A stretch of 35,886 nt of DNA from Candidatus Woesearchaeota archaeon (GCA_018302265.1 JAGVZV010000008.1:1-35886); one strand, 5' to 3'. Shown: positions 5,363 through 35,886, counted from the stretch's first letter. The notes: generated by a model not told the origin, from the letters alone. Translations and numbers: made by a program.

Positions 5363-6967
5363 ATGAGATATTACGAAGACCCTTTATTAAATTCTAAAAG
5401 ATATACCTTATATGATGGGGTTCTGAATCTATATTCTGCTCTGTTGAATAAAAAAGATTTTGAATCTGATAGAATACTTAATAATTTTCCTTATGTAGTT
5501 ATAGACAATATAGAATTGAATCAACAACTTATAGACTCATTAAAAAAGTATATTGGATGTAATATTAGTAAGGGAGCAATAAAAGGATGGGTATTAAATA
5601 GCAAATTTCCTTTGCCTCTTTTAAGAGTCATTTCTTTAAAGGCACCTAACCCAGAAAAAATTCTTTCTAATTTAATTAAAAGTATAAAATCAGTTACAAG
5701 TAATTTTGGAAATACTATAAAATTGTCTATTAAATATTCTGATTTGTTAATGAATAAACATATTTATTTCCACGGTTATTTATTAGGTGATGGTTGCATA
5801 TCTGATGACCTAATTAAATTAGCTGATGGACATCAAGATAAGTCTAAGATTCATTATTCAAAGCAACATATTGGTATGTTTAAAAAATATCTTAAGATAT
5901 GTTATAATTTGAATTCTAAAATTAAGCGAGTTGGTAATTGTTATCATCTAATAGCTTCAAGAAATAAATTTTTATCTAGGTATATTAAATTTTTTTATGG
6001 TTATGATAAAGACAAAGAAATAATTAGAGTTCCAGATATTATTAAAGATGATAGAGAAAAAATAAAGATATTTTTAAGAGGATTTTTTGATGCCGATGCA
6101 GGAATTAGTGAATTGTATAATTCAGTTATTTTAAAATCCAAGGATCACAATTTTTTAAAGTTTTGTAAGCTTTTTTTGGAAAAAGAAGGATTATTTTTGG
6201 ATAATGTTAAATTTGACTCTACTGGCGTATCATACATTACTATAAAATCTACAGAGTTTTTAAAATATGCGTATACAATTGGTTTTAATCATTCTCGCAA
6301 AAAAGAAATTTTATTGAATAGACTTAAGAAAAATTGTCCATTAAATGTATTTCGTGGGGTAAGAAAAAAATATTTGATAGATAGTTTGTATTTTGATTTT
6401 ACTATAATTCCAGATATGAGATTAACAGGACTACAAGATTTTTTTAAGAATATGAGATGTGATATTGGCACCCAAGAGGAAGTTTCTAAACTATTAAAAA
6501 TTCCCAGGAGATATGTAGGAAAATATGAAAATGGATTGTACTCTATTCCGATTGATATTTTTCTAAATTTAATCCAGATTAAAAATAAAATAAGGCTAGC
6601 AGATATATTTTCTAAAAATGACGTTAAATTTTGTATAAGCAAAAATAAAGGAGCTATAAAATTGCCATTATCAATAAATGATATAAATTTTGATATTTTA
6701 AAATATATGGCACCTACTCAGCATAAGATAATTATAAAGCGTTATGGTATTATTAATATAACTAATAAAATAAACAAAGAAATACTCTTTAAAAGAATAG
6801 AAGATTTCTTTGGTGTTAAAATTGTTAAAGATTCAGACTCTCACGTTATATTTAACACTACATTGGCTAGATTTTTGAATACATTTTTTGTATATGAATC
6901 TGCTTGGAAAGGGTTAAATGATAAAGAAAGAATTGATTTAGATAGAAAATTACAAATTCAGATGTAA
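5363..6967 (+). CDS. Free-standing double-motif LAGLIDADG homing-endonuclease-like protein with a C-terminal HTH
   Basis: Two LAGLIDADG motifs (HGYLLGDGCI and LRGFFDADAGI) about 100 aa apart. An XRE-like HTH (GTQEEVSKLLKIPRRYVGKYENGLYSIP) lies downstream. Not embedded in an intron or intein. Confidence 0.7.
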   Translation: MRYYEDPLLNSKRYTLYDGVLNLYSALLNKKDFESDRILNNFPYVVIDNIELNQQLIDSLKKYIGCNISKGAIKGWVLNSKFPLPLLRVISLKAPNPEKILSNLIKSIKSVTSNFGNTIKLSIKYSDLLMNKHIYFHGYLLGDGCISDDLIKLADGHQDKSKIHYSKQHIGMFKKYLKICYNLNSKIKRVGNCYHLIASRNKFLSRYIKFFYGYDKDKEIIRVPDIIKDDREKIKIFLRGFFDADAGISELYNSVILKSKDHNFLKFCKLFLEKEGLFLDNVKFDSTGVSYITIKSTEFLKYAYTIGFNHSRKKEILLNRLKKNCPLNVFRGVRKKYLIDSLYFDFTIIPDMRLTGLQDFFKNMRCDIGTQEEVSKLLKIPRRYVGKYENGLYSIPIDIFLNLIQIKNKIRLADIFSKNDVKFCISKNKGAIKLPLSINDINFDILKYMAPTQHKIIIKRYGIINITNKINKEILFKRIEDFFGVKIVKDSDSHVIFNTTLARFLNTFFVYESAWKGLNDKERIDLDRKLQIQM

Positions 6968-8775: not shown

Positions 8776-8904
8776 ATGGTAAAATGCTCAAAATGCGGTA
8801 AAAACATAGATATAGTGTTTCTTGAGAAGATTAGAGGAACTTATACTGGAAAAGGCAACAGAAAGAAAGCTATATGCTCAGAATGCCAGAAAACGCCACA
8901 GTAG
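8776..8904 (+). CDS. Possible 42-aa zinc-ribbon protein
   Basis: MVKCSKCGKNIDIVFLEKIRGTYTGKGNRKKAICSECQKTPQ* has a CxxC...CxxC pattern. It is below the ORF-track size cutoff. Its last 10 nt overlap the tRNA-Thr 5' end, so it may be spurious. Confidence 0.3.
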   Translation: MVKCSKCGKNIDIVFLEKIRGTYTGKGNRKKAICSECQKTPQ

Positions 8905-8979
8905 TTCAGTCTGGTAGAATATCTGCTTCGTATGCATAGAAAAAGCAGAAAGTCGCAGGTTCAAATCCTGCCTGTGGCT
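8895..8979 (+). tRNA. tRNA-Thr(CGU) with an 11-nt intron at the canonical 37/38 position
   Basis: Cloverleaf by hand: acceptor GCCACAG/CTGTGGC, D arm GTTC-AGTCTGGTA-GAAT, anticodon stem TCTGC/GCAGA, T arm GCAGG-TTCAAAT-CCTGC, discriminator T. The loop reads TT-CGT-A followed by TGCATAGAAAA. The BHB-like motif is relaxed (3-bp central helix), so anticodon identity is less certain. Confidence 0.7.
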
Positions 8980-11077: not shown

Positions 11078-12524
11078 TCAACCTTTAATTACAGAAAGTG
11101 GTGAAACTCTTACGACCTTGCTTCCCAAACCAACACCATGAGAAACTTCTATAACTGACTCTATTTCCTTGTACACTCCAGGCGCTTCTTCAGCAAGTCC
11201 ATCCCAAGAACCAGATTTTACTTCTATACCTTTTTCATGCAATTCTTTTTTAATAGTTTCCCCTCTGAATTGTCTTAAAGCTTCATGCCTTGACATCACT
11301 CTACCTGCACCATGAGGAGCACTACTAAAAGAAATCTCTTCTGCTTTGTTAGTTCCAACTAAAATATATGATGGATTACCCATCGATGAAGGCACAAGTA
11401 CCGGCTGTCCTGTTTTTTTATAAATCTCAGGTAATTCATCTCGTCCAGGACCAAAAGATCTTGTAGCACCTTTACGCATAATCAATACTTCTCTCGTTTT
11501 TCCATCTATTAAATGTTTTTCGAATTTTGCCACATTATGCGCGACGCAATATAATAAATTTATTTTTACCTTACCAAAAACTTTTTCAAAAGATTCACGT
11601 ATCCAATGCATTATCATCTGTCTATTTGCAAATGCAAAATTAGTTGCTGCACTCATTGCACCATAATATTTTTGCCCTAAATCAGAATTGATTGGTGCAT
11701 TTATCAGTTCTCTGTCAGGCAAATCCTTAAATCCATATTTCTGCTCCATTAGTTTTATGTAATCAGATGCAACTTGATGCCCAAGACCACGACTACCACA
11801 ATGAATTTGTATAACAACATTCTCTGGGTTAATACCCCATTCTTTAGCAATTTTATCATCAAATATCTTATCCACTTTTTCAACTTCCAAAAAATGATTT
11901 CCTGATCCTAGAGAACCAAGCTGAGGCATCCCACGTTTTAATGCTGTATCTGAAACAGCACCTGGATCTGCTTTTGGCATACAACCATACTCTTCTGTTC
12001 TATCAATATCTTCTTTTATGCCATAACCTTCTTTTACTGCCCATTTAGTCCCATTTTTTAGAACCTCCATCAAAATATCCTTTGTTACTCTTAGAGTTCC
12101 CTTGCTTCCAAGACCGGATGGAACATTCTTGTATACTTCATTGATTAATTGATCTCTTTTTTTTAGAAATTCATTTACAGAAAGGTCTGTTAAACAGCAT
12201 CTTACCCCACAATTGATGTCGTCTCAGGAAATTAAAGATTCTTTAATTTAATCCTACGCCACCAGGTGAGATTATTCCTTCCTGCATATCAAATGCAGCT
12301 ACACCACCGATTGGAAAACCGTAGCCTGAATGTATGTCTGGCATAGCCAAAGCACGCTTTTGGATTCCCTTCAGTGTTGCAACATTTGCTAGCTGTTTTA
12401 TTGCCTCTGGCTCTACAGCATCAAGGAGCTTTTTAGATGCAAAAATAACTCCTGGAACCAGCATAGAGCCTGTTTTAGGCAATTCCCATTCATATTCCGA
12501 TATTTTCTTTAACTGGTCTTTCAT
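11078..12524 (-). CDS. rtcB: RtcB RNA 3'-phosphate ligase (tRNA-splicing ligase), interrupted by a 28-nt putative BHB intron; proposed CDS = complement(join(11078..12222,12251..12524))
   Basis: N-terminal ORF 12243-12524 ends ...[19 protein letters not shown]...ISPGGVGLN*. The downstream frame (+1) reads *DDINCGVR... and continues into ORF 11078-12073. That ORF carries all RtcB metal/GMP His motifs ([29 protein letters not shown]). The joined length is 1419 nt (472 aa). Confidence 0.9.
12223..12250 (-). other. Putative 28-nt bulge-helix-bulge (BHB) intron within the rtcB mRNA
   Basis: On the minus-strand RNA: outer helix UGGUGGCG/CGACAUCA (7 of 8 pairs), 3' bulge AGA, 4-bp central helix UAGG/CCUG, 5' bulge AUU, inner 9-bp perfect helix AAAUUAAAG/CUUUAAUUU with loop AAU. 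Cutting after the second nt of each bulge removes exactly 28 nt and joins GGA-U|AC-GAC, giving G-Y-D. Confidence 0.6.
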
Positions 12525-12539
12525 TGTTGATAATAAGAT

Positions 12540-13583
12540 TTATGTATTTATTAACATTTCGCTGATTTTTTCTCTTAGTTTATATGTATCAGCCCATTTT
12601 GCATAAGCCTGCCATCCTTGATAGCTTTCTAGAATCTTTTCTTTTGTTATTTGTTTATTTTTATACTGATTTATTTTTATCAACATTTTTCTTATATTTC
12701 TTTTCCTTAATAGCCTATAATAATAAAAATTCCTAAAACCAATAAAATCTATTCCTCTTGATAAAGAGATTACTTTAGACTTTTCTTTGTGCAATTCCAG
12801 CTTTAATTCTTCTTTTAGAAAGGCGTCTATTTGTTCTTTCCATTTGGTTAATTGCTCTTTAGAATTATGCAAAATCACAAAATCATCAACATATCTTATA
12901 TAATATTTAGCTTTAAGTTTATGCTTAACAAAATAATCCAATTCATTGAGATAAACATTTGCAAAGAACTGAGAAGTCAGATTTCCTAGGGGCATTCCTA
13001 TATCCTCTTTTTCCTGTCCATTTATTAATATTAGTTTGATTAAATTGATTACTTTTTCATCTGCTATCTTCTTCTCTATTATTTTTATTAAAATGTTATG
13101 ACTAACTTCATAAAAATAATGCTTTATATCTCCTTTGAAGCAATAGCCTGAAACAAAATTATCATCAAAAATATCAGAGATTAACTTTCCATTATTTGAT
13201 GCCTTTCTCTTGAACAGATTGAATCTTTTAACTGCAAATAAATTTCCTTTGTTCTTTCTTGAAGCGCATGAATCATGTATAAATATCTTCTCAAAAATAG
13301 GTTCTATTATGTTGCATAAAGCATGATGGACTATCCTGTCTTCAAAAAAGGAAACGTGTATTACCCTTGTTTTTGGGTCTCTGATAATAAATCTCTTTAG
13401 CGGTCTTGGCTTGTAGGTTTCACTTAATAATCTTTCTTGTAGTCTTAATAGATTTTCTTTTAAATTATATTTAAATTGAATTACGTAATCTTTTTTGGTC
13501 TTTCCTTTTCTAGCTTTTTTGAATGCTAGCAATAAATTATTATAAGAATAAATTTTATGATATAAATTATTATGAGTATGCAT
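12540..13583 (-). CDS. DGR-type reverse transcriptase
   Basis: RT motifs RDPKTRVIHVSFFEDRIVHHAL, GDIKHYFYEV, GMPLGNLTSQFFANVYL (the [LI]GxxxSQ signature typical of DGR RTs), YIRYVDDFVIL (YxDD), KSKVISLSRGIDFIGF. About 350 aa with no maturase or endonuclease domain. The stop lies 15 nt upstream of the rtcB ATG. Confidence 0.9.
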   Translation of the reverse strand: MHTHNNLYHKIYSYNNLLLAFKKARKGKTKKDYVIQFKYNLKENLLRLQERLLSETYKPRPLKRFIIRDPKTRVIHVSFFEDRIVHHALCNIIEPIFEKIFIHDSCASRKNKGNLFAVKRFNLFKRKASNNGKLISDIFDDNFVSGYCFKGDIKHYFYEVSHNILIKIIEKKIADEKVINLIKLILINGQEKEDIGMPLGNLTSQFFANVYLNELDYFVKHKLKAKYYIRYVDDFVILHNSKEQLTKWKEQIDAFLKEELKLELHKEKSKVISLSRGIDFIGFRNFYYYRLLRKRNIRKMLIKINQYKNKQITKEKILESYQGWQAYAKWADTYKLREKISEMLINT

Positions 13584-13610
13584 TTTATTGCCTTAGCAGC
13601 ATAGACCATT

Positions 13611-13708
13611 CCGAGCCCAGAAGTCCCGTTCTTAATGAATTTCGAGTTCTGAGGATCCCTATTGCAATTCAAGTTAGCCCTATCCGAGTTAGCATTGAAC
13701 CCCGCAAC
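13611..13708 (-). repeat. DGR template repeat (TR): core 13643-13708 plus 3' extension with an IMH*-like TTCTGGGCTCGGAATG (IMH = initiation of mutagenic homing)
   Basis: The minus strand reads gtt gcg ggg ttc AAT gct AAC tcg gAt Agg gct AAC ttg AAT tgc AAT Agg gat cct cAg AAC tcg AAA. It is rich in AAY codons. The 66-nt core aligns without gaps to all three VRs. Confidence 0.85.
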
Positions 13709-13954
13709 AGTTAAAGTAGCACACTAATCAAATATTCACGGCTATCTTAATTTTCATTCAGAAACTTTCCCAAGGCTCCTTCATTATTACTGGTTATCAT
13801 AGCTGTATTTTATAACCGGAATCTTTTGGATTTGGTTGTAATCAGCATGCATGTGGTCTAAGTTATTGATCCTCACTAACTTATTGGGTAAGTTTCAAAT
13901 CAATAGAGCTAAGACATTTTTATAGAATAAAATTAATTAATAAAGCTTCCTAAA

Positions 13955-14752
13955 TTACGCGCCTTCGGCGCACCCAAACACCCCGAGCCCAGAATACGAG
14001 AACCGAGGATCCCAATTGCAACCCAAGTCAGCCCAATCCGAGTAAGCATAGAACCCCGCCACAGCACCATCTTCTGGTTTCCAATATCTAATATTTTCTC
14101 CTTGTCTATACTCTTGAGTATTATGTTTTGCATTTGGATTTGCTAATCCCTGATTATTTAGATTGGTAAAATCTATATAACAGTCATTCATTAGGCACGG
14201 ATTTAAATCTTCAACTGTTGTTACAAGTTTTCCATTATTTAACCCATTTATTGTTTCAAGATGCCATTTTTTCTTTTTATTTATGCATTTTCCATTAAGC
14301 CATGTCCACACTCCTAGTTTTTTTGGGTCATATATAGCTATGTGATCTTTAGTTAGATGTAGATACATATTCAGTATTTCCTCTTCTCTAATTCTTGAGT
14401 TTTCTGCATTTAGTACAGGTGTCTTATTTTTGTAAGCATCTAAAATTTTATTGAAAAAATGCATGAATATTCTTGGAGTGGGTACATACAGTTTATTTCC
14501 AAGCAATTTTGTATGGGTATCTTCGTAATTCATGTTATTGTATCCTGGCAGTTCAAACTTGGATATTACTGCTCTTTTTCCATATAATCCATTTGTATCT
14601 AATTGAACATATTCTTTTGGATCTTGTATATCAAATTCTCCAGAAACATTTGGATCATCTACTTTTTGTGCTAGTATAGAAGTCTCTTTTAGATCTGGAT
14701 TATGGGTTAATTCTGCTAATCTTATTAGATTTGGATTAATTCTCTTATTCAT
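13955..14752 (-). CDS. DGR variable protein, target 3 (C-terminal VR1); putative C-type-lectin/DUF1566-like variable domain
   Basis: C-terminus ...NIRYWKPEDGAVAGFYAYSDWADLGCNWDPRFSYSGLGVFGCAEGA*. VR1 occupies roughly the last 36 codons. The N-terminus shares the NPNL.RLAE..HNPDLKETSILAQKVDDPN module with its paralogs. No signal peptide. Confidence 0.8.
   Translation of the reverse strand: MNKRINPNLIRLAELTHNPDLKETSILAQKVDDPNVSGEFDIQDPKEYVQLDTNGLYGKRAVISKFELPGYNNMNYEDTHTKLLGNKLYVPTPRIFMHFFNKILDAYKNKTPVLNAENSRIREEEILNMYLHLTKDHIAIYDPKKLGVWTWLNGKCINKKKKWHLETINGLNNGKLVTTVEDLNPCLMNDCYIDFTNLNNQGLANPNAKHNTQEYRQGENIRYWKPEDGAVAGFYAYSDWADLGCNWDPRFSYSGLGVFGCAEGA
13979..14062 (-). repeat. VR1 (variable core 13997-14062) plus IMH-like TTCTGGGCTCGGGGTG (13979-13996)
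   Basis: Hand alignment to the TR gives 12 mismatches at TR adenines and one T-to-G at the 5' edge. A GC hairpin GCGCC-GAA-GGCGC (minus-strand reading; 13959-13971) follows. Confidence 0.85.
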
Positions 14753-15603
14753 TTTTGCTCCTTAATTTTTGCGATACGCACCCCGAGCCCAGAATACGAG
14801 AGCAGAGGATCACTAAGGCAATCCAAGAGAGCCCTACCCGAGGAAGCATAGAACCCCGCAACAGAATTATTATCCTTCATTGGACGCCAATAATTAATAT
14901 CATCTCCTTCTTTTGTTGGCATTCCCTGCTTGTTGCAACCGGATAAATCTATTTTACAATTATCCATTAGACATTCTTCTAATAATTTCCTATTTCTTGG
15001 GATTAAATTACCATTTGCATCCCGGACATGATTATAATAAATATATAAATTACCTTTTTCACTTTCCTGTATTTCCTTTCCTGCCTTATTTAAATATTTA
15101 AAATCAGCATCAAGCCATTCTGCTCTTCCAGGATTTCTTACACCAATAATTTCATCTAAAATTCTTTCCAGTTCTTTTGAATCTATTTTATTTTCATTAC
15201 CATCAAATGCTTTTCCTGATTTAAGAAGACTAATAAAATCTATCCCCTGCCTTGGATTAAGAGTAAATCCATTTAATTCTAAATTCAATCTTAAGGAATT
15301 TATCCAATTTATGTTTCCAATATAATCTCTTCCATTCTTTTCCTTTGATGTATTTGATAATTTTAATCCCAAAATATTTGCTACTTTTTCAACTTCTGGA
15401 TTATAAGATAATCTGTATTTTGAAACTAACAAATCAGGATATTCATAAGTTCCATGTCTTCCTTCAAGAATAATATAATCCTGTGGGTTTTGAACATTTA
15501 TGTTTGGTGTTTGTATTGGCTGTTGCACTAGTGAAGTATCCACTTTTAGATCTGGATCATATGTCTGCTCTGCTAGTTTTAGTAAATTTGGGTTTATTTT
15601 CAT
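14749..15603 (-). CDS. DGR variable protein, target 2 (C-terminal VR2)
   Basis: C-terminus ...DINYWRPMKDNNSVAGFYASSGRALLDCLSDPLLSYSGLGVRIAKIKEQK*. ATGA overlap with target 3. The N-terminal MKINPNLLKLAEQTYDPDLK is identical to target 1. Confidence 0.8.
   Translation of the reverse strand: MKINPNLLKLAEQTYDPDLKVDTSLVQQPIQTPNINVQNPQDYIILEGRHGTYEYPDLLVSKYRLSYNPEVEKVANILGLKLSNTSKEKNGRDYIGNINWINSLRLNLELNGFTLNPRQGIDFISLLKSGKAFDGNENKIDSKELERILDEIIGVRNPGRAEWLDADFKYLNKAGKEIQESEKGNLYIYYNHVRDANGNLIPRNRKLLEECLMDNCKIDLSGCNKQGMPTKEGDDINYWRPMKDNNSVAGFYASSGRALLDCLSDPLLSYSGLGVRIAKIKEQK
14779..14862 (-). repeat. VR2 (variable core 14797-14862) plus IMH-like block (14779-14796)
   Basis: 14 mismatches at TR adenines and one G-to-T (agg to agt). 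The 43-nt 3' flank 14758-14800 is identical to 17156-17198. A small hairpin TGCG-TAT-CGCA (minus-strand reading; 14770-14780) and an AAGGAG sequence precede the next ATG. Confidence 0.85.
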
Positions 15604-17150
15604 TGTATTGATTTCTTGAGTTCCCCCATTGTTATGCTTTTAATGTCATCCTGTGAATGAAGTGGGAGAATAGCTACATTTTTCTTATCTTTCAACCTTT
15701 CTGACAGATTTTTTATGTTCCCAGAATCTGTATAGAACAAATGAACCCTGTGAACATTTGGCAATCCAGAGATGTAAGACAAAAATTCATCTAAATTGTG
15801 AATTCCCATATCAGAAACAACGCTTATGTCAATGCTCTTTTGCGCTTTAACCATATTTTCTATTGTTGATGTGCTGAATACAGTTCCGCCTGACTGATAT
15901 GTTCTTATTATTTTGTGGATATTTTCCTTTTTATTGGAAGGACCAAAAACCAGATTGTCTGCTGAAAAATTATAAATTGTTACCTTAGATCCATTATTGA
16001 GATAGGCATTTGCTATTACAGTTGCTCCTAAAACAGGTATTGAAATATTTTCATCAGGGTTTGGCATGCTCCCAGATGAATCAATAACAATCAAGCTATC
16101 CGGAATTTCAAAATAGGCTGTTGTAACCTCTCCCTCTTTCTTAATCCATTTTTGTGTTATACCTGGAATTATTCCTGGACTTGAAAAAGGATCAAGATCA
16201 TTTATGTGATCATCGAGACTAAATTCCTCATGTGAGTGTGGATATAAACTTCCATTCTTTTGTATTTGTTTTTTTCTAATAGGTATTGAAAAGTTCTCTG
16301 CAAGTGCTGAATAGAAATTTCTTGCTATAATTATATTTCCCTTCTCAGTTCCAGCGCTTTTTCCTGATTCTTGTTCTTTTAATTCCTTTCCCTCATTAGA
16401 TTTTTCTAAAAATTGTTTTACTACATCCTCAAATTCTCCAGGCTGTGATTCCTGGGCAAACTGCCTTATTCCCTCTCTTACTTGATTATCAGAAAAACCA
16501 GAGCCAGAATCATGATCTTTTGATTCATATTTTTCATCCTGATGTTGGTCCATATATTCTTTAATAACACCAATAAATTTCCTAAAATTATTTTCTTCAT
16601 TTGTTTTATCTAAATAATCTATTCCACTTAATCTTTCAATTAAATTATTTTCTTCTTTCTTAAGTTTTAATCCAAAATCTGTTTTCCATAATTTTTGACA
16701 TAATCCAAAAAATATCTTATCCAAACTTTTTGATTTTATAGCTTCTGATTTTAGAGATTTTGGTATGCTCTCGTAACCCTTATTCTCAACAAGATTTGTA
16801 TTATTTTGTACATTCAAGAATGCCTCTCTTGAATAATAAGCCTTCTGCCCATAAAGACTTTCACTGGCGATTTTTTGCAATCTTAACAAATTTAAAACAG
16901 ATCCAGGATAATCTATAAAATGCCCTGTTTCATGCCCTAAAATTGCATTGAATGATGTAGATTCATCGCAATCAGATTTCTTCAGTTCTTGGACATAATC
17001 TGGATTAATAGTAATTTGGAGATTTTCAAAATTAAATTGTCCATTTGGAATATCTTGTGATAATTTTGGCTGAGGCAATTGAGGATAGTAAAAATCCCTT
17101 CTTACTTCCTGCCATTCTCTTTCCATTATATTTTGTAAATCTTCAGTCAT
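15600..17150 (-). CDS. Protein with an N-terminal HExxH metallopeptidase-like domain and a C-terminal VWA domain
   Basis: AILGHETGHFIDYPGS contains HExxH. The C-terminal LIVIDSSGSMPNP carries the DxSxS motif of the metal-ion-dependent adhesion site (MIDAS), with downstream SGGT and SDMG. The architecture recalls the DUF2201-type VWA partners of MoxR ATPases (from memory, needs an HMM check). 4-nt overlap with target 2. Confidence 0.75.
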   Translation of the reverse strand: MTEDLQNIMEREWQEVRRDFYYPQLPQPKLSQDIPNGQFNFENLQITINPDYVQELKKSDCDESTSFNAILGHETGHFIDYPGSVLNLLRLQKIASESLYGQKAYYSREAFLNVQNNTNLVENKGYESIPKSLKSEAIKSKSLDKIFFGLCQKLWKTDFGLKLKKEENNLIERLSGIDYLDKTNEENNFRKFIGVIKEYMDQHQDEKYESKDHDSGSGFSDNQVREGIRQFAQESQPGEFEDVVKQFLEKSNEGKELKEQESGKSAGTEKGNIIIARNFYSALAENFSIPIRKKQIQKNGSLYPHSHEEFSLDDHINDLDPFSSPGIIPGITQKWIKKEGEVTTAYFEIPDSLIVIDSSGSMPNPDENISIPVLGATVIANAYLNNGSKVTIYNFSADNLVFGPSNKKENIHKIIRTYQSGGTVFSTSTIENMVKAQKSIDISVVSDMGIHNLDEFLSYISGLPNVHRVHLFYTDSGNIKNLSERLKDKKNVAILPLHSQDDIKSITMGELKKSIQ

Positions 17151-17152
17151 TT

Positions 17153-17917
17153 TTACTCCTTAATTTTTGCGATACGCACCCCGAGCCCAGAATACGAGCC
17201 CCGAGGATCCCAAGCGCAACTCAAGAGAGCCCTACCCGAGAAAGCAACGAACCCCGCAACACGTTCTTTTTGTTTTTCTAGTTTGGAATTAACACGCCAG
17301 ATATGAGCATCCTTTTCTGTTATCCATTTGTAAATATTATTTATTTCTTGTAAATTATCAGATCCTAGTAATGCCTTGAATGTATTTTTTTCTTTTAATT
17401 TTTTTACCCATTCATCTGGTCCAACAAAATCATCAGACACATTATATTGATCAGGCATTTTATAATTGTGAATTACTATATCTTTATTTGGAGAAGGCAT
17501 ATATTTTATTCTTGTTAAAGTCATTAACCAATTCTTGAACATTTTTTCTTTAATGAATTGCTTTGCCTGTTCTACTAAGTGCTTATTAGAAGAATCTCTG
17601 TTCTGATACAATGCCTGAAATAATGAATGATAGAGAGGAAAATCTCCTAGCTTAAATTCATTTGTTTTAGAGTATTCTGACCACTGGTCTTGTGTCTTAG
17701 AATCTCCATTATCCAATAATTCTTTTTGCAAGTCCACATGGTAAATTCCATCTCTGTAATTTACTCCTGTTACTGCCCAAAAATTAGGATTGTTGTTTAT
17801 ACTAAATTCTTGGGAAATATTTGGATCAGCTACTTTTTGTGCTAGTATAGAAGTCTCTTTTAGATCTGGATCATATGTCTGCTCTGCTAGTTTTAGTAAA
17901 TTTGGGTTTATTTTCAT
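17153..17917 (-). CDS. DGR variable protein, target 1 (C-terminal VR3)
   Basis: C-terminus ...EKQKERVAGFVAFSGRALLSCAWDPRGSYSGLGVRIAKIKE*. The N-terminal module is shared with targets 2 and 3. 4-nt overlap with the upstream AAA+ gene. Confidence 0.8.
   Translation of the reverse strand: MKINPNLLKLAEQTYDPDLKETSILAQKVADPNISQEFSINNNPNFWAVTGVNYRDGIYHVDLQKELLDNGDSKTQDQWSEYSKTNEFKLGDFPLYHSLFQALYQNRDSSNKHLVEQAKQFIKEKMFKNWLMTLTRIKYMPSPNKDIVIHNYKMPDQYNVSDDFVGPDEWVKKLKEKNTFKALLGSDNLQEINNIYKWITEKDAHIWRVNSKLEKQKERVAGFVAFSGRALLSCAWDPRGSYSGLGVRIAKIKE
17177..17260 (-). repeat. VR3 (variable core 17195-17260) plus IMH-like block (17177-17194)
   Basis: 16 mismatches to the TR, all at TR adenines. Hairpin TGCG-TAT-CGCA (minus-strand reading) at 17168-17178. 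Confidence 0.85.
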
Positions 17918-19263
17918 TCTAACTCCTGTCCTAAATCCAAGAATACAGGATGACCCTTGCCGTTTGCAGCATATAATTTGGCTGCTTTTTTAGCTTCTTC
18001 CAATTTATTTTTTTGTATACAATTAATAACAGCCTGATAATTATTTCTGCTTTCAAGGAATCTTTTTTTAACGCCAGGCAGTTCGCTTGTTCCATCTCCA
18101 AGCAATGTTTTTACTGCATACAACAATAATGGATCTTTTCTGCTATCATCTTTTAATTTACTAGCAACACCATCAGTTAATCTTAACCTGTGCCATAATG
18201 CATAAGGAGCTACAGTCAGCATGTGCTCTAGATTTACTTCTTTTAAATCCTGCAACCATGCTAATGCCTGTGAATATCTTACTATGCTTTTATCCTCTCT
18301 TCTGCTTCCAGAACCCTCTATTAAATTGTATAGATAATGTCCCTCTTCTCCATTTATTGGATCATTGCTTCTTTTCTGCCCAAATTTAGGATGTGTGTTT
18401 AATTCTGAAATCAGGAAACTCAAATAAGTCAAAGCATCCTTGTCTAGTGCAATCTTTCCTATTTCGCTGTCTATTTCATTTAGTTCTTGCTCTGTCAGTG
18501 TCTCTAATCCATTTTGCTTTAATTCTTTTCTGAACACTTCAGATAAATCATTAAGGCTATTCCTTATTTCTTGATATGGCTTTCCTGAATTTAGCAATTC
18601 AATTATTTTATTTGAAATTTCAGGATTTTTTAATATAGCATCTTTAGCACCATAATAATCCTGGCTAATTGCTATAGCATTTGCTACTCCTGGGAATTTG
18701 CTTTCTGTAGCTACATCAAATCTATCTAAAATAGGGGGTATAAGTGAATTATTTCCTCTATCTTCATAATTACATGTAGCAAAAAATGGTTGTTTATCTT
18801 GGCTTATATGCTCATTAAGATAACCCCATTCTCCCCTATCTAATCCATCCAAAAGCATAGACTGGCTTGATTCTGGTATTCTATTAAATTCATCAACTAT
18901 TTTTTGTGGCACTAAAACAAAGTGTTGCCATACAACATGTTCCTGACCCTGATGCATTTTACCATAATCTGGTCTTCCAACTATCTTTTCTTGTGTTAGT
19001 TGTGGACTTCCACGGATAACCGCCCTTCTTACAATTTCAATTGGTAAATTATTAAATAAAGAATGCAAGTATTCTGCGCTTGTAGTCTTACCCCCACCAT
19101 ATTCACCAAATAATATTTGTCTCCCTCTATTAAGCTCTGTTAATACACCAAATAATAGAGAAGAATTGAATTTATCATTGCCAATATTTAAATCATCTCT
19201 ACATAAATAAAAATTATTCCTAATCTGTTCATATAAACCCTTAACCTTATCTTGATATTTCAT
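17914..19263 (-). CDS. MoxR-like AAA+ ATPase
   Basis: Walker A GEYGGGKTT, Walker B KIVDEFNR, sensor-like FFATCNYEDRG and an RFD Arg. The C-terminal half is helical. Confidence 0.75.
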   Translation of the reverse strand: MKYQDKVKGLYEQIRNNFYLCRDDLNIGNDKFNSSLLFGVLTELNRGRQILFGEYGGGKTTSAEYLHSLFNNLPIEIVRRAVIRGSPQLTQEKIVGRPDYGKMHQGQEHVVWQHFVLVPQKIVDEFNRIPESSQSMLLDGLDRGEWGYLNEHISQDKQPFFATCNYEDRGNNSLIPPILDRFDVATESKFPGVANAIAISQDYYGAKDAILKNPEISNKIIELLNSGKPYQEIRNSLNDLSEVFRKELKQNGLETLTEQELNEIDSEIGKIALDKDALTYLSFLISELNTHPKFGQKRSNDPINGEEGHYLYNLIEGSGSRREDKSIVRYSQALAWLQDLKEVNLEHMLTVAPYALWHRLRLTDGVASKLKDDSRKDPLLLYAVKTLLGDGTSELPGVKKRFLESRNNYQAVINCIQKNKLEEAKKAAKLYAANGKGHPVFLDLGQELE

Positions 19264-19600: not shown

Positions 19601-20239
19601 ATGATTCCGCTAATATTAAAATTGAAAAAAGCCCAGCATAAAGGTATTGCCCAAGCGCAGGATTTGATAATTAAAGAATTATATAATGTATTTAATGAGG
19701 CAGTTTTGCATGGAGGAACCAGTATCTGGAGATGCTATAAAGGGAATAGATTTTCAGAGGACATCGATGTTTATATCCAAAAAGATATAAAAAAATTAGA
19801 TGAATTATTTGACAGATTTAAAAAAATAGGGTTTATAATAGAAAAAAGAAAGATAACAGAAAACAGCCTGTACTCCAATTTGAAATTTAACAGAATTTCT
19901 GTAAGATTTGAGGCTTTATTTAAAAGAATAAATGGTGCACTGATGGAATATGAAAATAGCGATGGAAATGTTATTATGGTATATTCATTAACCCCAGAAG
20001 AGTTAATAAAAGAAAAGGTAAATGCTTATTTAAACAGGAATAAAATAAGGGATTTATATGATATATTTTTCTTATTAAAATATATTAAGGATAAGATAAG
20101 CATAAAAGAAAGTTTATCCAATCTAATAAAAAATTTTAAAGCTCCAACAGATGAAAAAGATTTAAAGATTTTAATTTTAGAGGGAATTGTTCCAAAAGCA
20201 GAAAAAATGATGGAATATATAAAAAATAAAAATGGGTAA
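19601..20239 (+). CDS. AbiEii-like nucleotidyltransferase (type IV toxin-antitoxin / abortive-infection toxin family)
   Basis: LHGGTSIWRCYKGNRFSEDIDVY resembles the GGTAL..CY...R.S.D[IL]D NTase motif of AbiEii/DUF1814 proteins. Confidence 0.6.
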   Translation: MIPLILKLKKAQHKGIAQAQDLIIKELYNVFNEAVLHGGTSIWRCYKGNRFSEDIDVYIQKDIKKLDELFDRFKKIGFIIEKRKITENSLYSNLKFNRISVRFEALFKRINGALMEYENSDGNVIMVYSLTPEELIKEKVNAYLNRNKIRDLYDIFFLLKYIKDKISIKESLSNLIKNFKAPTDEKDLKILILEGIVPKAEKMMEYIKNKNG

Positions 20240-20819
20240 GGAAAAATATCTCAAAGACATAGAAAATATTTTTAAAAAGAGTGCAGTAGTTGATGCTAAA
20301 TCCATAGAGCGTTTTATAAAAAGCAAAAAGAGAATAAAACAATATCAAAAACAGCTGATAAGAAACCTTATTTTAAAGGGAAAAATTAAAAGATTAACTA
20401 AGGGGTACTATAGTTTGTATGATGATCCTTCATTACTGGTGTTTTGTTTTAAGCCAGCATATTTGGGGCTGCAGGATGCTATGAGCTTCAATAATTTATG
20501 GGAGCAAGAAACAATACCTGTAATAATCACCTCCAAAAAAATAAGGCAGGGCATTAGAAAAGTATTTGGAAACAATGTCTTGATAAGAAGGATTAAAAAA
20601 AGATATATATTTGGGTTTGAATATCAAAAACAAAAAGACTATTATCTGCCTTATTCTAATATAGAAAAAACATTTATAGACATGATATATTTCAATCAAA
20701 AAATAAGTGAAGAAGATTTAAAAAACATTCTTAAACAAGTAAACAAGCAAAAATTAAAATCTTATCTTAAAATATATCCGTTAAAATTCAGGAAAAATAT
20801 TTTAAATTTTATTTCATAA
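20232..20819 (+). CDS. AbiEi-like antitoxin / wHTH regulator
   Basis: The basic segment KQLIRNLILKGKIKRLTKGYYSL is typical of the AbiEi N-terminal domain. 8-nt overlap with the preceding NTase gene. The gene order (NTase first) is reversed relative to the usual abiEi-abiEii order. Confidence 0.45.
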   Translation: MGKEKYLKDIENIFKKSAVVDAKSIERFIKSKKRIKQYQKQLIRNLILKGKIKRLTKGYYSLYDDPSLLVFCFKPAYLGLQDAMSFNNLWEQETIPVIITSKKIRQGIRKVFGNNVLIRRIKKRYIFGFEYQKQKDYYLPYSNIEKTFIDMIYFNQKISEEDLKNILKQVNKQKLKSYLKIYPLKFRKNILNFIS

Positions 20820-22178: not shown

Positions 22179-22212
22179 TTAAATAGTTTTCTATTCTTAA
22201 TATTTTAAAGAG

Positions 22213-22304
22213 TGGGCCCGGAGGGATTTGAACCCTCGGCCTTCGCCTTGTAAGGGCAACGTCTTAACCATTGTCCATCAAATAAGATTCTGGACCACAG
22301 GCCC
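22213..22304 (-). tRNA. tRNA-Val(UAC) with a 19-nt intron in the D-loop (after G15; 22271-22289)
   Basis: Acceptor GGGCCUG/CGGGCCC, anticodon arm UUGCC-CUUACAA-GGCGA, T arm GAGGG-UUCAAAU-CCCUC, discriminator A. The D region GUCC-AG[AAUCUUAUUUGAUGGACAA]UGGUUA-AGAC becomes a canonical AGUGGUUA D-loop after excision. GUCC/GGAC forms the 4-bp central helix, flanked by 3-nt bulges AGA and AAU. Confidence 0.8.
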
Positions 22305-32235: not shown

Positions 32236-33043
32236 TTGAAAATGGCATATTCAGAAAATGCAGATGTGATAATTATTGAAGCAAATTACGACAGAACATC
32301 TTCATATGGAAAGGGTTCTAACAAAGCACCAAAAGCAATTAAGAAAATTTTTGACAACCAAATTGAAATTTATGAGAGAATTACAGGATTAAACCCGGCT
32401 GAAGATCTTAGAATCGAATTTCAGGATTTGGGAGATCTAAACACATTATCTCCTGAAAAAATGGTCAGTAAAATAAAAAAAGTGTTTAAAAATTTATATA
32501 AAAAAAATAAATTTATTATTACACTGGGGGGAGAGCATTCTATTACAAACGGGCCTCTTGAAGCAATAAGCGAATTAAGCAAGTCTTCAGATATCACGGT
32601 AGTGCAGATTGATGCGCATTTTGATTTAAGGCCAGATGATTCAGATTATAGTCCAAGACCATGGGGAAAATACAAGAACTTATCATGGTAAATTAGAATT
32701 AGAATTTGCCAAAAATAATAATATAAAGTTCTTTGAGTGGGGAAAAGATGGAGATCCAAGAATAAAAAATATAATAAAAGCTATCCCAACAAAGAATGTT
32801 TATTTGACAATAGATGTGGACGGATTTGACCCATCTGTAATGCCCTCAACAGGAACTCCTGTTCCAGATGGAATACAATGGAGATATGGCATGAATCTAT
32901 TAAAAGAGATTTTTAATTCAAAAAATGTGATAGCAGCGGATATAGCAGAAGTCATACCTGAAAGAAGCACAACCTACAATGCAGCCCAATTATTGTATTA
33001 TTTGATAGCACTAAAGCAAAAGGATATTCTTGCAAAAAAATAA
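32236..33043 (+). pseudogene. speB: Agmatinase/arginase-family gene split by a +1 frame change (ORFs 32236-32691 and 32636-33043)
   Basis: Part 1 has GGEHSIT and QIDAHFDLR. Part 2 has TIDVDGFDPSVMPSTGTP and ADIAEVIPE. The frames overlap at 32636-32691. The segment normally between the SH(A/G) and GIRS regions looks shortened. Confidence 0.7.
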
Positions 33044-35796: not shown

Positions 35797-35879
35797 GCGG
35801 TTTTAGTTCAGTGGTAGAATGCGAGATTCCCATACGTTGGAAAGATCTCGAAATGCGGGTCCGATTCCCGCAAACCGCA
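35797..35879 (+). tRNA. tRNA-Gly(CCC) with a 12-nt intron at 37/38
   Basis: Acceptor GCGGTTT/AAACCGC, D arm GTTC-AGTGGTA-GAAT, anticodon stem CGAGA/TCTCG, loop TT-CCC-A then TACGTTGGAAAG. Central helix TTCC/GGAA with 3' bulge AGA. T arm GCGGG-TCCGATT-CCCGC, which has an unusual C at position 55. Confidence 0.85.
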
Positions 35880-35886
35880 CTTTTAG

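Follow-up and report, generated by a model that had tools for sequence, protein, structure and literature searches.

We interpret the minus-strand locus at 12540–17917 of the window (the whole 35,886-nucleotide stretch of DNA analysed here) as an active, Avd-less DGR in a DPANN chromosome, whose template (TR) RNA is spliced before mutagenic reverse transcription, and we assign this reading a probability of about 80%. Proof at the RNA level is missing, and the splicing is inferred solely from DNA. The host is a tiny DPANN archaeon (Nanoarchaeota, Woesearchaeota or Pacearchaeota group) and the DGR is chromosomal. A DPANN clade of such elements has already been described with the DUSEL4 Nanoarchaeota DGRs (Paul et al. 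2015, Nat Commun, PMC4372165). The present DGR is a further member of this clade and its novelty lies in the spliced TR, which is not described in the searchable literature; an earlier mention in Paul et al. 2017 (Nat Microbiol) cannot be excluded.

The reverse transcriptase (RT) gene at 12540–13583 (minus strand) encodes 347 amino acids with a Pfam RVT_1 match (E 4e-20). Its best PDB match and closest solved relative, aligned over the full length, is 8ub7_A (E 5e-47), which is 100% identical to Brt of the Bordetella phage BPP-1. The GNLTSQ and YVDD signatures that the earlier note had read from this gene are both present; as LGNLTSQ and YVDD they meet the [ILV]GxxxSQ plus YxDD criterion for the DGR RT clade, and the [ILV]GxxxSQ-type motif is invariant across 25 relatives. 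Homologues at E<1e-30 number more than 7,900 and bear the names of Nanoarchaeota, Pacearchaeota and Woesearchaeota. The RT clade is represented in the genomes of at least 586 species, almost all of them DPANN, and its loci have one to five VRs each. The Pfam scan of the window ORFs bears out the claimed absence of an avd-like ORF, since it gave no Avd-like or four-helix-bundle match in the ORFs scanned, even to E 1 for small ORFs. avd is present in about 74% of DGRs and is not universal, the Avd-less architecture A being a recognised class (Wu et al. 2018, PMC5758913).

The anatomy of one TR with three adenine-mutagenised VRs, which had been proposed from the sequence, is established; it held in every test run (RT relatives, mismatch bias, population data), and all features claimed were recovered at their coordinates on the minus strand. 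The ungapped correspondence of TR 13643–13708 to 13997–14062, 14797–14862 and 17195–17260 is exact, and searching the full 35.9 kb of the window on both strands, with changes at adenines tolerated, yields these three VRs alone. Within the 66-nt core we count 10, 12 and 14 adenine mismatches instead of the 12, 14 and 16 of the earlier note, which require two extra positions 3' of the core. One of these, 13640, is an alignment artefact, because the first base of an 18-nt TR-only insert was set against a T of the VR. The strong adenine bias itself stands, as do the two non-adenine exceptions in the core, T>G in VR1 and G>T in VR2. Without the insert, the TR runs colinear with every VR for 85 nt, and in this computed alignment the mismatches fall on TR adenines at 13 of 14 positions in VR1, 15 of 16 in VR2 and 17 of 17 in VR3, i.e. 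45 of 47 in total (hypergeometric P = 3e-9, 4e-11 and 2e-14, respectively), demonstrating that the TR/VR differences are adenine-specific. The mutagenised part, TR exon 1 (13641–13709, minus strand, from the TR/VR alignment), has 19 adenines, 17 of which vary in at least one VR.

TR exon 2 (13606–13622, minus strand, TTCTGGGCTCGGAATGG) contains an IMH*-like box and is identical to the VR ends except for AA replacing GG. Each VR is followed by the IMH TTCTGGGCTCGGGGTG (13979–13994, 14779–14794 and 17177–17192), with GGGGTG at the place where the IMH* TTCTGGGCTCGGAATG of the TR region (13607–13622) reads GGAATG. The invariant GC-rich box and its TR counterpart, previously taken for an IMH/IMH* pair, are thus found as such, while their supposed contiguity with the TR core is not, as 18 nt intervene. 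An IMH-like element at the VR end and an IMH*-like element at the TR end satisfy this criterion for a DGR, although IMH function remains a sequence-based inference. The short hairpin reported after every VR is strong at VR1 (GCGCC-GAA-GGCGC, 13959–13971) and has a stem of just 4 bp after VR2 and VR3 (TGCG-TAT-CGCA); the DGR criterion of a GC-rich inverted repeat downstream of the VR is met.

Population variation was assessed at the assembly level by comparing public assemblies and contigs of the same organism from other samples with the window. In line with the population test that had been proposed, differences within the DGR operon are confined to VR2 and VR3 and lie almost always at TR-A sites (10/10 in VR3 and 16/19 in VR2). 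Of the distinct differences in the two VRs, 27 of 29 are at such sites, with contigs L115 and L116 counted as one allele. Contig L113 (variant P0249) shows 10 differences over 1143 nt, every one at VR3 TR-A sites, L115 and L116 show 18 over 2960 nt, all within VR2, and the variants P0241 and P0242 differ from the window only in VR2. Over 11.5 kb, L114 has a single DGR difference, which affects the A immediately preceding the splice junction on the 5' side, with its 13 remaining differences all outside the DGR operon and its TR, intron, RT-16 RNA and RT identical to those of the window. The loci L109 and L110 share the same RT protein, and their VRs differ at 13 sites (12 TR adenines and one TR G), including both A's preceding the junction. 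No population variant of VR1 was found in the same-organism assemblies. Current variation of VRs is directly observed in these comparisons, and judging from them diversification confined to the VRs is ongoing and the DGR is active.

The TR insert (13623–13640, minus strand, ATTCATTAAGAACGGGAC), delimited by gapped alignment and absent from all VRs, has the form of an 18-nt bulge-helix-bulge (BHB)-type intron. Its MFE fold comprises an outer helix h, the helix H (CUCG:CGGG), a bulge AAA, an inner helix h' (UUC-AUUAA-GAA) stacking on H, and a 3' bulge AC(U). This second bulge has only 2 nt in the MFE fold because its third base can pair, and 3 nt if the A-U pair opens. As helix h is weak in several loci and the second bulge may be of 2 nt, the motif is often of the relaxed type; relaxed BHB motifs are cut by only some endonuclease classes, among them (alpha-beta)2 and epsilon2 (PMC3239211). 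The motif of the window is best classed as near-strict to relaxed, the strict form (3-4-3) having 3-nt bulges on opposite strands on either side of a 4-bp helix and the relaxed forms being HBh' and hBH. The BHB rule, by which cuts occur after the second nucleotide of each bulge, predicts CTCGAA|TTCTGG, and this is the junction present in VR1–3, where the 'mature sequence' is taken from VR DNA, not from RNA. The 5' strand of H is kept in the VRs and the 3' strand is removed, an asymmetry expected from BHB cleavage. Since the 18 nt are found in the TR but are missing from every VR, the template appears to be spliced before reverse transcription. Splicing of the TR RNA by the host tRNA-splicing endonuclease and RtcB ahead of mutagenic reverse transcription is the best reading, with the enzymes and the order of events inferred.

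The same geometry holds for two further introns of the window. Three tRNA genes carry introns, and the 12-nt intron of tRNA-Gly obeys the BHB rule (UUCC-CA^U...GGAA-AG^A). The RtcB RNA ligase gene (11078–12524, minus strand), located outside the DGR and with its Pfam RtcB match split over two ORFs, holds a 28-nt BHB intron at 12223–12250. Rule-based removal of this mRNA intron restores GGVG-Y-DINCGVR, and the spliced RtcB of 472 amino acids matches that of P. horikoshii in a gapless alignment (E 4e-159). The window encodes Archease as well as RtcB, and a splicing endonuclease gene is not present in it; endonucleases of broad specificity in ultrasmall archaea, and the definition of the BHB, have been described (PMC3239211). 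RtcB is inferred to be the host factor joining the TR exons, and in no other locus examined is it adjacent to the RT.

The anatomy H5'(4)-NN^N...hairpin...H3'(4)-NN^N is seen in the window and 12 further loci, with helix H 100% paired across all of them. An intron-like structure with covariation is further demonstrated by the inner helix, whose changes are compensatory, i.e. its sequence varies and pairing is kept (covariation of 0.346 compared to 0.199 in shuffles, 0/500 of which reach 0.346, and at most 0.125 in slid controls). The TR inserts measure 18 to 39 nt, not multiples of 3, and every VR of the intron-bearing loci lacks the insert exactly at the rule-predicted junction; the register is ambiguous by 1–3 nt in some loci, where the register fitting the BHB rule was chosen. 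Adenine mutagenesis flanks the junction on both sides in three loci (L008, L036 and L058). The 13 CTCG-type introns do not amount to 13 independent tests of the rule because they share one H helix and one TR position. Ten more TR inserts, from L014, L026, L080 and L082, have nine different H helices, and nine of these inserts pair 4/4 in BHB geometry while one pairs 3/4; up to three introns occur within one TR of ~100 nt in L014, L026 and L082. In L112, the nearest relative without an intron, the TR lines up colinearly with the spliced TR of the window.

A cDNA without the insert could also arise from an unspliced TR if the DGR RT jumped across the hairpin within one template molecule. Template switching is known from RTs of the group II/DGR lineage, and in all loci the insert forms a stable stem-loop. 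Length differences between TR and VR, with indels in 7% of DGRs, have moreover been ascribed to slippage at AAC (Wu et al. 2018, PMC5758913), but AAC repeats are not adjacent to the inserts studied here. A jump should delete both H strands or leave ragged ends, whereas the VRs invariably retain the H5' strand with 2 further nt and lack the H3' strand with 2 further nt. The junction is identical in more than 25 VRs, and the junctions show no microhomology. Furthermore, the tRNA and mRNA introns of the same genome, which involve no RT, obey the same geometry. A template jump is thus unlikely, albeit conceivable. From one locus alone, gain of an insert in the TR cannot be separated from its removal en route to a VR, and VR1 is without population variants; the insert might then have entered the TR after the last homing of a DGR that is now decaying, its BHB resemblance being fortuitous. 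Against this, the same insert type occupies the same TR position in RT lineages only 55–73% identical and must therefore be far older than the VR differences among ~99–99.9% identical strains. The inner-helix sequence varies while pairing persists, the ten further inserts with other H helices have the same geometry, and L114, a strain with a variant VR, retains the insert in its TR, which leaves very little room for a recent insertion.

That the locus is not a DGR, but a group II intron- or retron-type RT beside paralogues with repeated fast-evolving 3' ends, could be argued from sources that label relatives 'retron-type reverse transcriptase' and from the top NCBIfam model, group_II_RT_mat. 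However, the group II model TIGR04416 scores 154 bits (cut-off 300) and the retron_St85 model 54 (cut-off 235), and no group II or retron RNA family was matched in Rfam scans. Among the structural relatives Brt leads by 23 orders of magnitude; in the PDB search, group II/retron-type RTs match the window RT at only 1e-23 (compared to 5e-47). The mismatches are restricted to the adenines of a repeat that is non-coding and adjoins the RT. The adenine bias and the population data refute this explanation, to which we attach practically no weight.

The region of about 245 nt (13709–13954) that the earlier note had described as a gap indeed lacks an ORF but is not empty. It contains the structured RNA RT-16 (Rfam RF03019; 13711–13914, minus strand), directly 5' of the TR, in a match that spans the full model 1–158 (69.7 bits, E 6e-9, gathering score 50). 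In 29 of 30 related loci from DPANN archaea, RT-16 directly adjoins the TR. A long-range helix, P0, pairs the 5' end of RT-16 (13908–13916) with GCUAAGGCA (13589–13597, minus strand) in the spacer between the IMH* and the RT start codon. Across 17 loci the cognate P0 duplex reaches −12.7 kcal/mol compared to −9.3 kcal/mol for non-cognate pairs (permutation p = 5e-5), and compensatory variants are found among them.

Each VR makes up the last ~28 codons of its target gene, and the three targets are paralogous and lie on the minus strand. This location at the 3' end of a target ORF is that expected of a DGR, whose VR typically falls in a C-type-lectin or Ig fold. Target 1 (13955–14752, 265 aa) contains VR1 at 13979–14063 and the VR1 hairpin, which has a GRA loop, target 2 (14749–15603, 284 aa) VR2 at 14779–14863, and target 3 (17153–17917, 254 aa) VR3 at 17177–17261, each VR including its IMH. 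The AlphaFold model of target 2 has a pLDDT of 93; its best Foldseek matches (TvpA, FGE, CD23, Mtd) are weak (E at least 0.02, TM ~0.3), as is its resemblance to the C-type-lectin/FGE fold. Two linked genes lie on the same strand. A 516-aa protein encoded between the targets (15600–17150) has a weak VWA match (Pfam VWA_2, E 0.005, below cut-off), and its homologues adjoin DGR targets in L079, L050 and L083. The first gene of the apparent operon encodes an AAA_5 (MoxR/midasin-type) ATPase (17914–19263; Pfam AAA_5, AAA_lid_2), and L112 has the identical gene order AAA_5 – target – large protein – target – RT.

In the proposed mechanism, one minus-strand RNA would comprise RT-16, TR exon 1, the 18-nt intron, TR exon 2 with the IMH*, a short spacer and the RT ORF, with P0, formed by the RT-16 5' end and the spacer, enclosing the TR. 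The insert would fold into a bulge-helix-bulge and be excised by the tRNA-splicing endonuclease of the cell, and RtcB, with Archease, may ligate the exons. The DGR RT would then copy the spliced TR to cDNA, misincorporating opposite adenines, and the cDNA would replace the 3' ends of the three paralogous targets with the GC-rich IMH as a presumed anchor. The enzymes, the order of splicing and reverse transcription, priming and integration are all inferred.

The closest systems are the DUSEL4 Nanoarchaeota DGRs and the CPR/DPANN DGR set (Paul et al. 2017; Wu et al. 2018, PMC5758913), which are likewise chromosomal with multiple targets and no clear Avd (architecture A of Wu et al.). The nanoarchaeal DGRs have the same GGAAT (IMH*) / GGGGT (IMH) contrast as the window (Paul et al. 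2015, PMC4372165), and the DUSEL4 DGRs share a GRA tri-loop hairpin within the target gene, here at VR1. SCGC AAA011-G17 (L036) has an RT 59% identical to that of the window, in the same clade, and its TR does contain an insert. A TR insert, gap or intron is unmentioned in PMC4372165 and PMC5758913, and neither links RT-16 to these DGRs, Paul et al. 2017 being outside the scope of both statements. RT-16 was originally described just as 'near RT genes', with no role assigned (Weinberg et al. 2017, PMC5737381); the present analysis locates it next to the 5' end of the TR in DPANN DGRs and extends it by P0.

With the BPP-1 DGR (mtd-avd-TR-brt) the window shares a homologous RT, adenine-specific mutagenesis, a VR at the target C-terminus, IMH/IMH* directionality, a hairpin after the VR and a structured non-coding RNA around the TR. 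BPP-1, however, has Avd and one phage tail-fibre target, and its structured RNA lies 3' of the TR (spacer, Rfam RT-10; Weinberg 2017, PMC5737381), whereas the window has no Avd, three cellular targets, RT-16 5' of the TR and an intron in the TR. Archaeal BHB introns (tRNA, rRNA; cbf5 pre-mRNA, PMC2738675) resemble the TR intron in that the central helix has 4 bp, a bulge has 3 nt, the inner part forms a hairpin and the cut sites lie behind the second nucleotide of the bulge on each strand. Lengths of 17–39 nt and a patchy phylogenetic distribution are also shared. While those introns sit in tRNA, rRNA and mRNA, the intron of the window sits in a retroelement template, and its inferred splice product is recorded as DNA of the VRs. 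A self-splicing group I td intron engineered into the BPP-1 TR reportedly gave a VR without the intron after homing, a result regarded as the classic evidence that homing proceeds through an RNA intermediate (Guo et al. 2008, Mol Cell). In contrast to that artificial, self-splicing phage construct, the intron of the window is natural, of the protein-dependent BHB type and conserved.

All parts of the DGR lie on the minus strand. The RT ORF (12540-13583, Pfam RVT_1) has the TR (13641-13709) directly upstream, a repeat that recurs at the 3' ends of three ORFs, namely target gene 1 (13955-14752), target gene 2 (14749-15603) and target gene 3 (17153-17917). TR/VR detection with blastn gave nothing, as the repeats are too short and too mismatched, and was replaced by an adenine-wildcard ungapped scan and then a gapped dynamic-programming scan. 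The earlier note had proposed one TR and three VRs, and the adenine-wildcard scan of the whole window recovers exactly those three VRs and no further ones. The ungapped TR/VR offsets given there are exact in a computed alignment, and the two non-adenine exceptions, a T-to-G in VR1 and a G-to-T in VR2, are present within the 66-nt core. The adenine bias also holds; the reported adenine mismatches of 12, 14 and 16 do not, since inside this core they number 10, 12 and 14. The higher counts take in two extra positions, one of which is an artefact of alignment across an indel.

This indel is an 18-nt stretch (13623-13640, ATTCATTAAGAACGGGAC) located between ...CTCGAA and TTCTGGGCTCGGAATG, which gapped alignment finds in the TR only and in none of the VRs. 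Once it is removed, the TR is colinear with each VR over 85 nt, and the mismatches fall on TR adenines in 13/14, 15/16 and 17/17 cases (hypergeometric P of 3e-9, 4e-11 and 2e-14). An alternative alignment with the gap placed elsewhere introduces non-adenine mismatches and was rejected. In the frame of the targets the spliced TR reads VAGFNANSDRANLNCNRDPQNSNSGLGM and has the usual AAY codons.

TR-only inserts of the same kind are found in related DGR loci (L006, L008, L030, L031, L035, L036 and L045, and also L058, L060, L083, L093 and L109-111), in every case with the form CUCG-AA^A-[hairpin]-CG(A/G)G-NN^N, where ^ is the predicted cut. Insert lengths range from 18 to 39 nt without 3-nt periodicity. 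Unconstrained MFE folds of ten inserts (the window and nine loci), and of that in L109, each contain an outer helix and a central 4-bp helix (H), on which an inner hairpin stacks; the bulge of the 5' strand is 3 nt long (AAA) and that of the 3' strand 2-4 nt. Archaeal splicing endonucleases recognise this bulge-helix-bulge (BHB) geometry in its strict 3-4-3 or relaxed forms, the latter being cut by (alpha-beta)2 and epsilon2 enzymes, e.g. that of ARMAN-2 (PMC3239211). In a trimmed alignment of 13 loci, pairing within H is complete (100%), and three pairs of the inner helix have changed in a compensatory manner. Covariation in these loci is 0.346 compared to 0.199 in shuffles, none of 500 of which reach 0.346, while slid controls have a maximum of 0.125.

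Under the BHB rule, each bulge is cut behind its second nucleotide. The exon junction expected from this is the one observed in every VR of every locus with a CUCG-type insert (in the window CTCGAA joined to TTCTGG). The same rule was verified within the window on two RNAs unrelated to the RT. The tRNA-Gly gene (35797-35880, plus strand) carries a 12-nt canonical 37/38 intron in a strict BHB, where H is UUCC/GGAA and the bulges are CA^U and AG^A. In the RtcB gene (11078-12524, minus strand), a 28-nt insert (12223-12250) interrupts the reading frame; its H is UAGG/CCUG, its bulges are AU^U and AG^A, and its inner helix has 9 bp. Removal of this insert according to the rule restores GGVG-Y-DINCGVR, and yields an RtcB of 472 amino acids whose alignment with the P. 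horikoshii protein is gapless (E 4e-159). As the RtcB gene is itself split by a BHB intron, the ligase mRNA would need the splicing pathway including ligase activity, which may constitute an autoregulatory loop. All three tRNA genes of the window have short introns (35797-35880 and 8895-8979 on the plus strand, 22212-22304 on the minus strand); that of tRNA-Thr is 11 nt with one mismatched H pair, and that of tRNA-Ile is 6 nt at a non-canonical position according to ARAGORN. A role of RtcB as a DGR component was considered and rejected. RtcB or Archease is adjacent to the RT in none of about 115 related loci, and the adjacency in the window is probably coincidence.

By exact-sequence look-ups we located the same organism in other public assemblies. 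Contig L113, colinear with 18139-16997, differs at 10 of 1143 nt, all in VR3 and all at TR-adenine positions. Contigs L115 and L116, colinear with 16970-14012, show 17 substitutions and one 1-nt insertion, all within VR2; 15 of these differences are at TR adenines, and one restores the TR G at the G-to-T exception. Contig L114 spans 11.5 kb including the whole DGR, with TR, intron, RT-16 RNA and RT identical to the window, and it differs within the DGR at one site only, the adenine immediately preceding the TR insert junction (codon TAT to AAT). The polymorphism at TR adenines for which the earlier note proposed a population test is found at the assembly level (L113, L115/L116 and L114), and the DGR is almost certainly active. 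A population variant of VR1 was not found, with only one partial homologue to compare. The VR2 allele at L115 2195-2316, shared with L116 (protein P0241), has its 1-nt insertion beside mutagenised sites and a frameshifted C-terminus, and either is a non-functional homing product or reflects misassembly of a hypervariable region. Of the 14 differences that separate the otherwise near-identical L114 from the window, nine cluster in the terminal 120 nt of L114 (window 12071-12192), immediately 3' of the RtcB intron; these may be strain variation or contig-end error.

We estimate a probability of about 0.8 that the TR transcript is spliced by host enzymes before reverse transcription, a reading inferred from DNA alone. 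A gap between TR and VRs could also arise if the RT jumped across the insert on its template. The junctions are, however, asymmetric and invariant: the VRs keep the H5' strand and lose the H3' strand, which endonuclease cleavage would produce and a polymerase jump across the base of the hairpin would not. In addition, the RT-independent introns of the window show identical geometry, and we regard a template jump as improbable. Adenine mutagenesis occurs in both exons (L008, L036 and L058), and both adenines beside the junction are mutagenised in the window population and in L109/L110, indicating that the cDNA spans the exon-exon junction. A recent insertion into a dying TR would likewise leave the VRs without the extra nucleotides, but the insert is older than the VR variation and its structure is conserved, so that this explanation is very hard to sustain.

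The gapped adenine-tolerant scan revealed TRs with several inserts, i.e. L014 (9812-9971; 33, 21 and 17 nt), L026 (5295-5471; 17, 31 and 33 nt) and L082 (1646-1842; 27, 28 and 25 nt), as well as a single 20-nt insert in L080 (9852-9981), overall 17-33 nt in length. For nine of these ten inserts a sequence-equivalent register gives a perfect 4-bp H in the arrangement H5'(4)-NN^N...H3'(4)-NN^N, while the tenth pairs at three of four positions. The nine perfect helices are all different, and we calculate the chance of a perfect 4-bp H in random sequence, counting G-U pairs, as about 0.02 per register. The VRs of these four loci were missed or only partly aligned by the ungapped TR/VR scan, and the loci with three introns went undetected in that first scan. 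A rough RT tree groups the multi-intron TRs into a single clade, which includes Aenigmatarchaeota, and shows the CUCG-type intron as patchy, occurring in at least seven places. The closest intron-free relative of the window is L112, whose RT is 71% identical and whose genes follow the same order; its TR and the spliced window TR are exactly colinear. An intron-plus-IMH* pattern was not found in viral contigs: none of 49 IMG/VR matches lies at a DGR TR, and we take these matches as chance, only one contig having a weak RT-like match about 6 kb away. BHB introns, one to three per TR, are inferred in approximately 15% of DPANN DGR templates (12/80 species-level loci). We hold it to be rather more probable than the opposite that archaeal DGRs routinely route their template RNA via the cellular tRNA-splicing pathway, with endonuclease and RtcB excising these introns before mutagenic reverse transcription and splicing being a prerequisite for homing.

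In the proposed mechanism, the host endonuclease together with RtcB/Archease would splice the TR transcript, the RT would copy the spliced RNA with adenine misincorporation, and the cDNA would replace the VRs, anchored at the IMH. With the IMH* located in the last exon, no colinear cDNA could come from an unspliced template, and splicing is inferred to be a precondition for productive homing. The intron could be a neutral passenger, a barrier to cDNA homing into the TR, or a gate coupling diversification to RNA processing.

The gap upstream of the TR, which the earlier note described as lacking an ORF, is not empty. The stretch 13711-13914 matches the whole model of Rfam family RF03019 (RT-16) with 69.7 bits (gathering score 50). 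RT-1 to RT-19 were described only as located near RT genes, and RT-10 was linked to the BPP-1 spacer while RT-16 was given no role (Weinberg et al. 2017, PMC5737381). RT-16 is present in 29 of 30 related loci scanned, ending within a few bases of the TR 5' boundary. Its 5' end UGUCUUAGC (13908-13916) pairs with GCUAAGGCA (13589-13597) in the spacer that separates IMH* from the start codon of the RT gene. Duplexes from 17 loci are more stable when the two strands are cognate than when they are not (-12.7 vs -9.3 kcal/mol, permutation p = 5e-5), and this long-range helix shows compensatory variants (CCUAGC/GCUAGG, CCUGGC/GCCAGG, CCUUGAC/GUCAAGG and CCUAACC/GGUUAGG). Based on this pairing, RT-16, TR and spacer look like one RNA domain, which we infer to organise the template without Avd, with RT-16 setting the 5' limit of cDNA synthesis. 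Placing this orphan family beside the TR offers a handle on template organisation in Avd-less DGRs. In two loci (L009, 8880-9118; L032, 2687-2890) the arrangement is convergent, with RT-16 and TR on the strand opposite to the RT and downstream of it, in contrast to the usual upstream, same-strand position.

The RT bears the LGNLTSQ and YVDD signatures and, as the earlier note had it, belongs with DGR RTs. Its best solved relative, matched over the full length, is 8ub7_A (E 5e-47; group II/retron-type RTs 1e-23), a chain identified by tblastn as 100% identical to brt of Bordetella phage BPP-1, and group II and retron NCBIfam models score far below their cut-offs. The RT family is very large, with more than 7,900 proteins at E<1e-30. 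At least 586 species-representative genomes carry it, and nearly all of these belong to DPANN archaea (Woesearchaeota, Pacearchaeota, Nanoarchaeota, Aenigmatarchaeota and Micrarchaeota). With the RT as query, a metagenome scan yielded just 28 loci, all at 65% identity or less, and close relatives were instead obtained through exact-protein look-ups. A TR just upstream of the RT together with one to five adenine-mutagenised VRs was recovered by our scans in 69 of 99 related loci, and three targets are therefore ordinary for the clade.

The three targets have in common an N-terminal module of about 30 amino acids (MKINPNLLKLAEQTYDPDLK...) and the C-terminal VR. Target genes 2 and 3 are 98% identical over their initial 65 nt (15543-15607 and 17857-17921) although their bodies have diverged, and the N-terminal likeness points to gene conversion or to a conserved signal for interaction or sorting. 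For target 2, a confident AlphaFold model (pLDDT 93) has only weak Foldseek matches to TvpA, FGE, CD23 and Mtd (E 0.02 or worse), so that a C-type-lectin fold is plausible from the model, not shown. Hairpins do follow each VR as noted earlier; a strong GRA-loop hairpin, of the type characteristic of nanoarchaeal DGRs, follows only VR1 (13959-13971), whereas VR2 and VR3 are followed by 4-bp stems (14770-14780 and 17168-17178), yet these VRs vary in the population.

The window is cellular DNA encoding ribosomal proteins, deoxyhypusine synthase, pyruvoyl arginine decarboxylase, Dus, an ABCE1-like ATPase, RtcB, Archease and intron-bearing tRNA genes. One apparent operon on the minus strand interleaves the targets with a 516-residue protein with a weak VWA match (15600-17150) and includes an AAA_5 (MoxR/midasin-type) ATPase (17914-19263). 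The AAA_5/VWA gene order is repeated in L112, and homologues lie beside targets in L079, L050 and L083. As these genes recur in only four to five related loci, they were rejected as core DGR parts and are taken merely as linked genes; Midasin-like matches have been reported among CPR/DPANN targets (Wu et al. 2018, PMC5758913). Directly upstream of the operon, on the opposite strand, lie an AbiEii-type nucleotidyltransferase toxin gene and a 195-residue partner with a very weak AbiEi_4 match (19601-20819, plus strand). A 534-residue ORF with LAGLIDADG_3 and HTH_3 domains (5363-6967, plus strand) may be a free-standing or intein-derived homing endonuclease. An arginase/agmatinase-family gene (32236-33043, plus strand) consists of two overlapping ORFs in different frames, changing near 32650 at GGGG/AAAA runs with about 33 profile positions missing; a BHB intron is not obvious here, and the gene looks like a frameshift or pseudogene instead.

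In prokaryotes, no natural system other than DGRs is known to hypermutate proteins in a targeted way. DGRs are particularly frequent in DPANN and CPR organisms, in which none is known to have been tested experimentally. If the proposed splicing is true, nature has repeated the 'intron in TR' experiment, in which an engineered td intron is reported to have been placed in the BPP-1 TR, and protein diversification in ultrasmall archaea is gated by, or protected through, RNA splicing. A natural TR intron would provide DNA-level proof, in uncultured archaea, that TR information flows to the VR via processed RNA. It would also order events, with splicing inferred to precede reverse transcription, and tie DGR activity to host RNA-processing enzymes, themselves inferred. 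Retroelement templates and RtcB mRNA would be added to the few RNAs other than tRNA that the archaeal splicing endonuclease is known to process, its cleavage here being inferred. Such introns would account for a class of TR/VR "indels" formerly ascribed to RT slippage, which has been placed at AAC (Wu 2018, PMC5758913), and DGR finders that allow no or only small gaps will truncate or miss intron-bearing TRs.

No paper joining diversity-generating retroelements with bulge-helix-bulge was found, and none relevantly linking DGRs with splicing endonuclease, in a literature search that did not cover Paul 2017. Nanoarchaeal DGRs were first described in the single-cell genome SCGC AAA011-G17 (locus L036), in a paper in which the terms insertion, gap and deletion do not occur, although the TR of this genome has an intron (Paul et al. 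2015, PMC4372165). What is new here is the putatively spliced TR and the placement of RT-16 at the TR, both supported by comparative DNA evidence only. The window DGR itself is a member of an already known DPANN clade, and multi-target cassettes and Avd-less architectures are also known. It has the same IMH TGGGGT / IMH* TGGAAT contrast as the DGRs of Paul et al. 2015 (PMC4372165) and likewise a GRA-loop hairpin. No Avd-like protein is encoded in the window, in agreement with the missing avd-like ORF of the earlier note, and this corresponds to the accessory-free architecture A of Wu et al. 2018 (PMC5758913).
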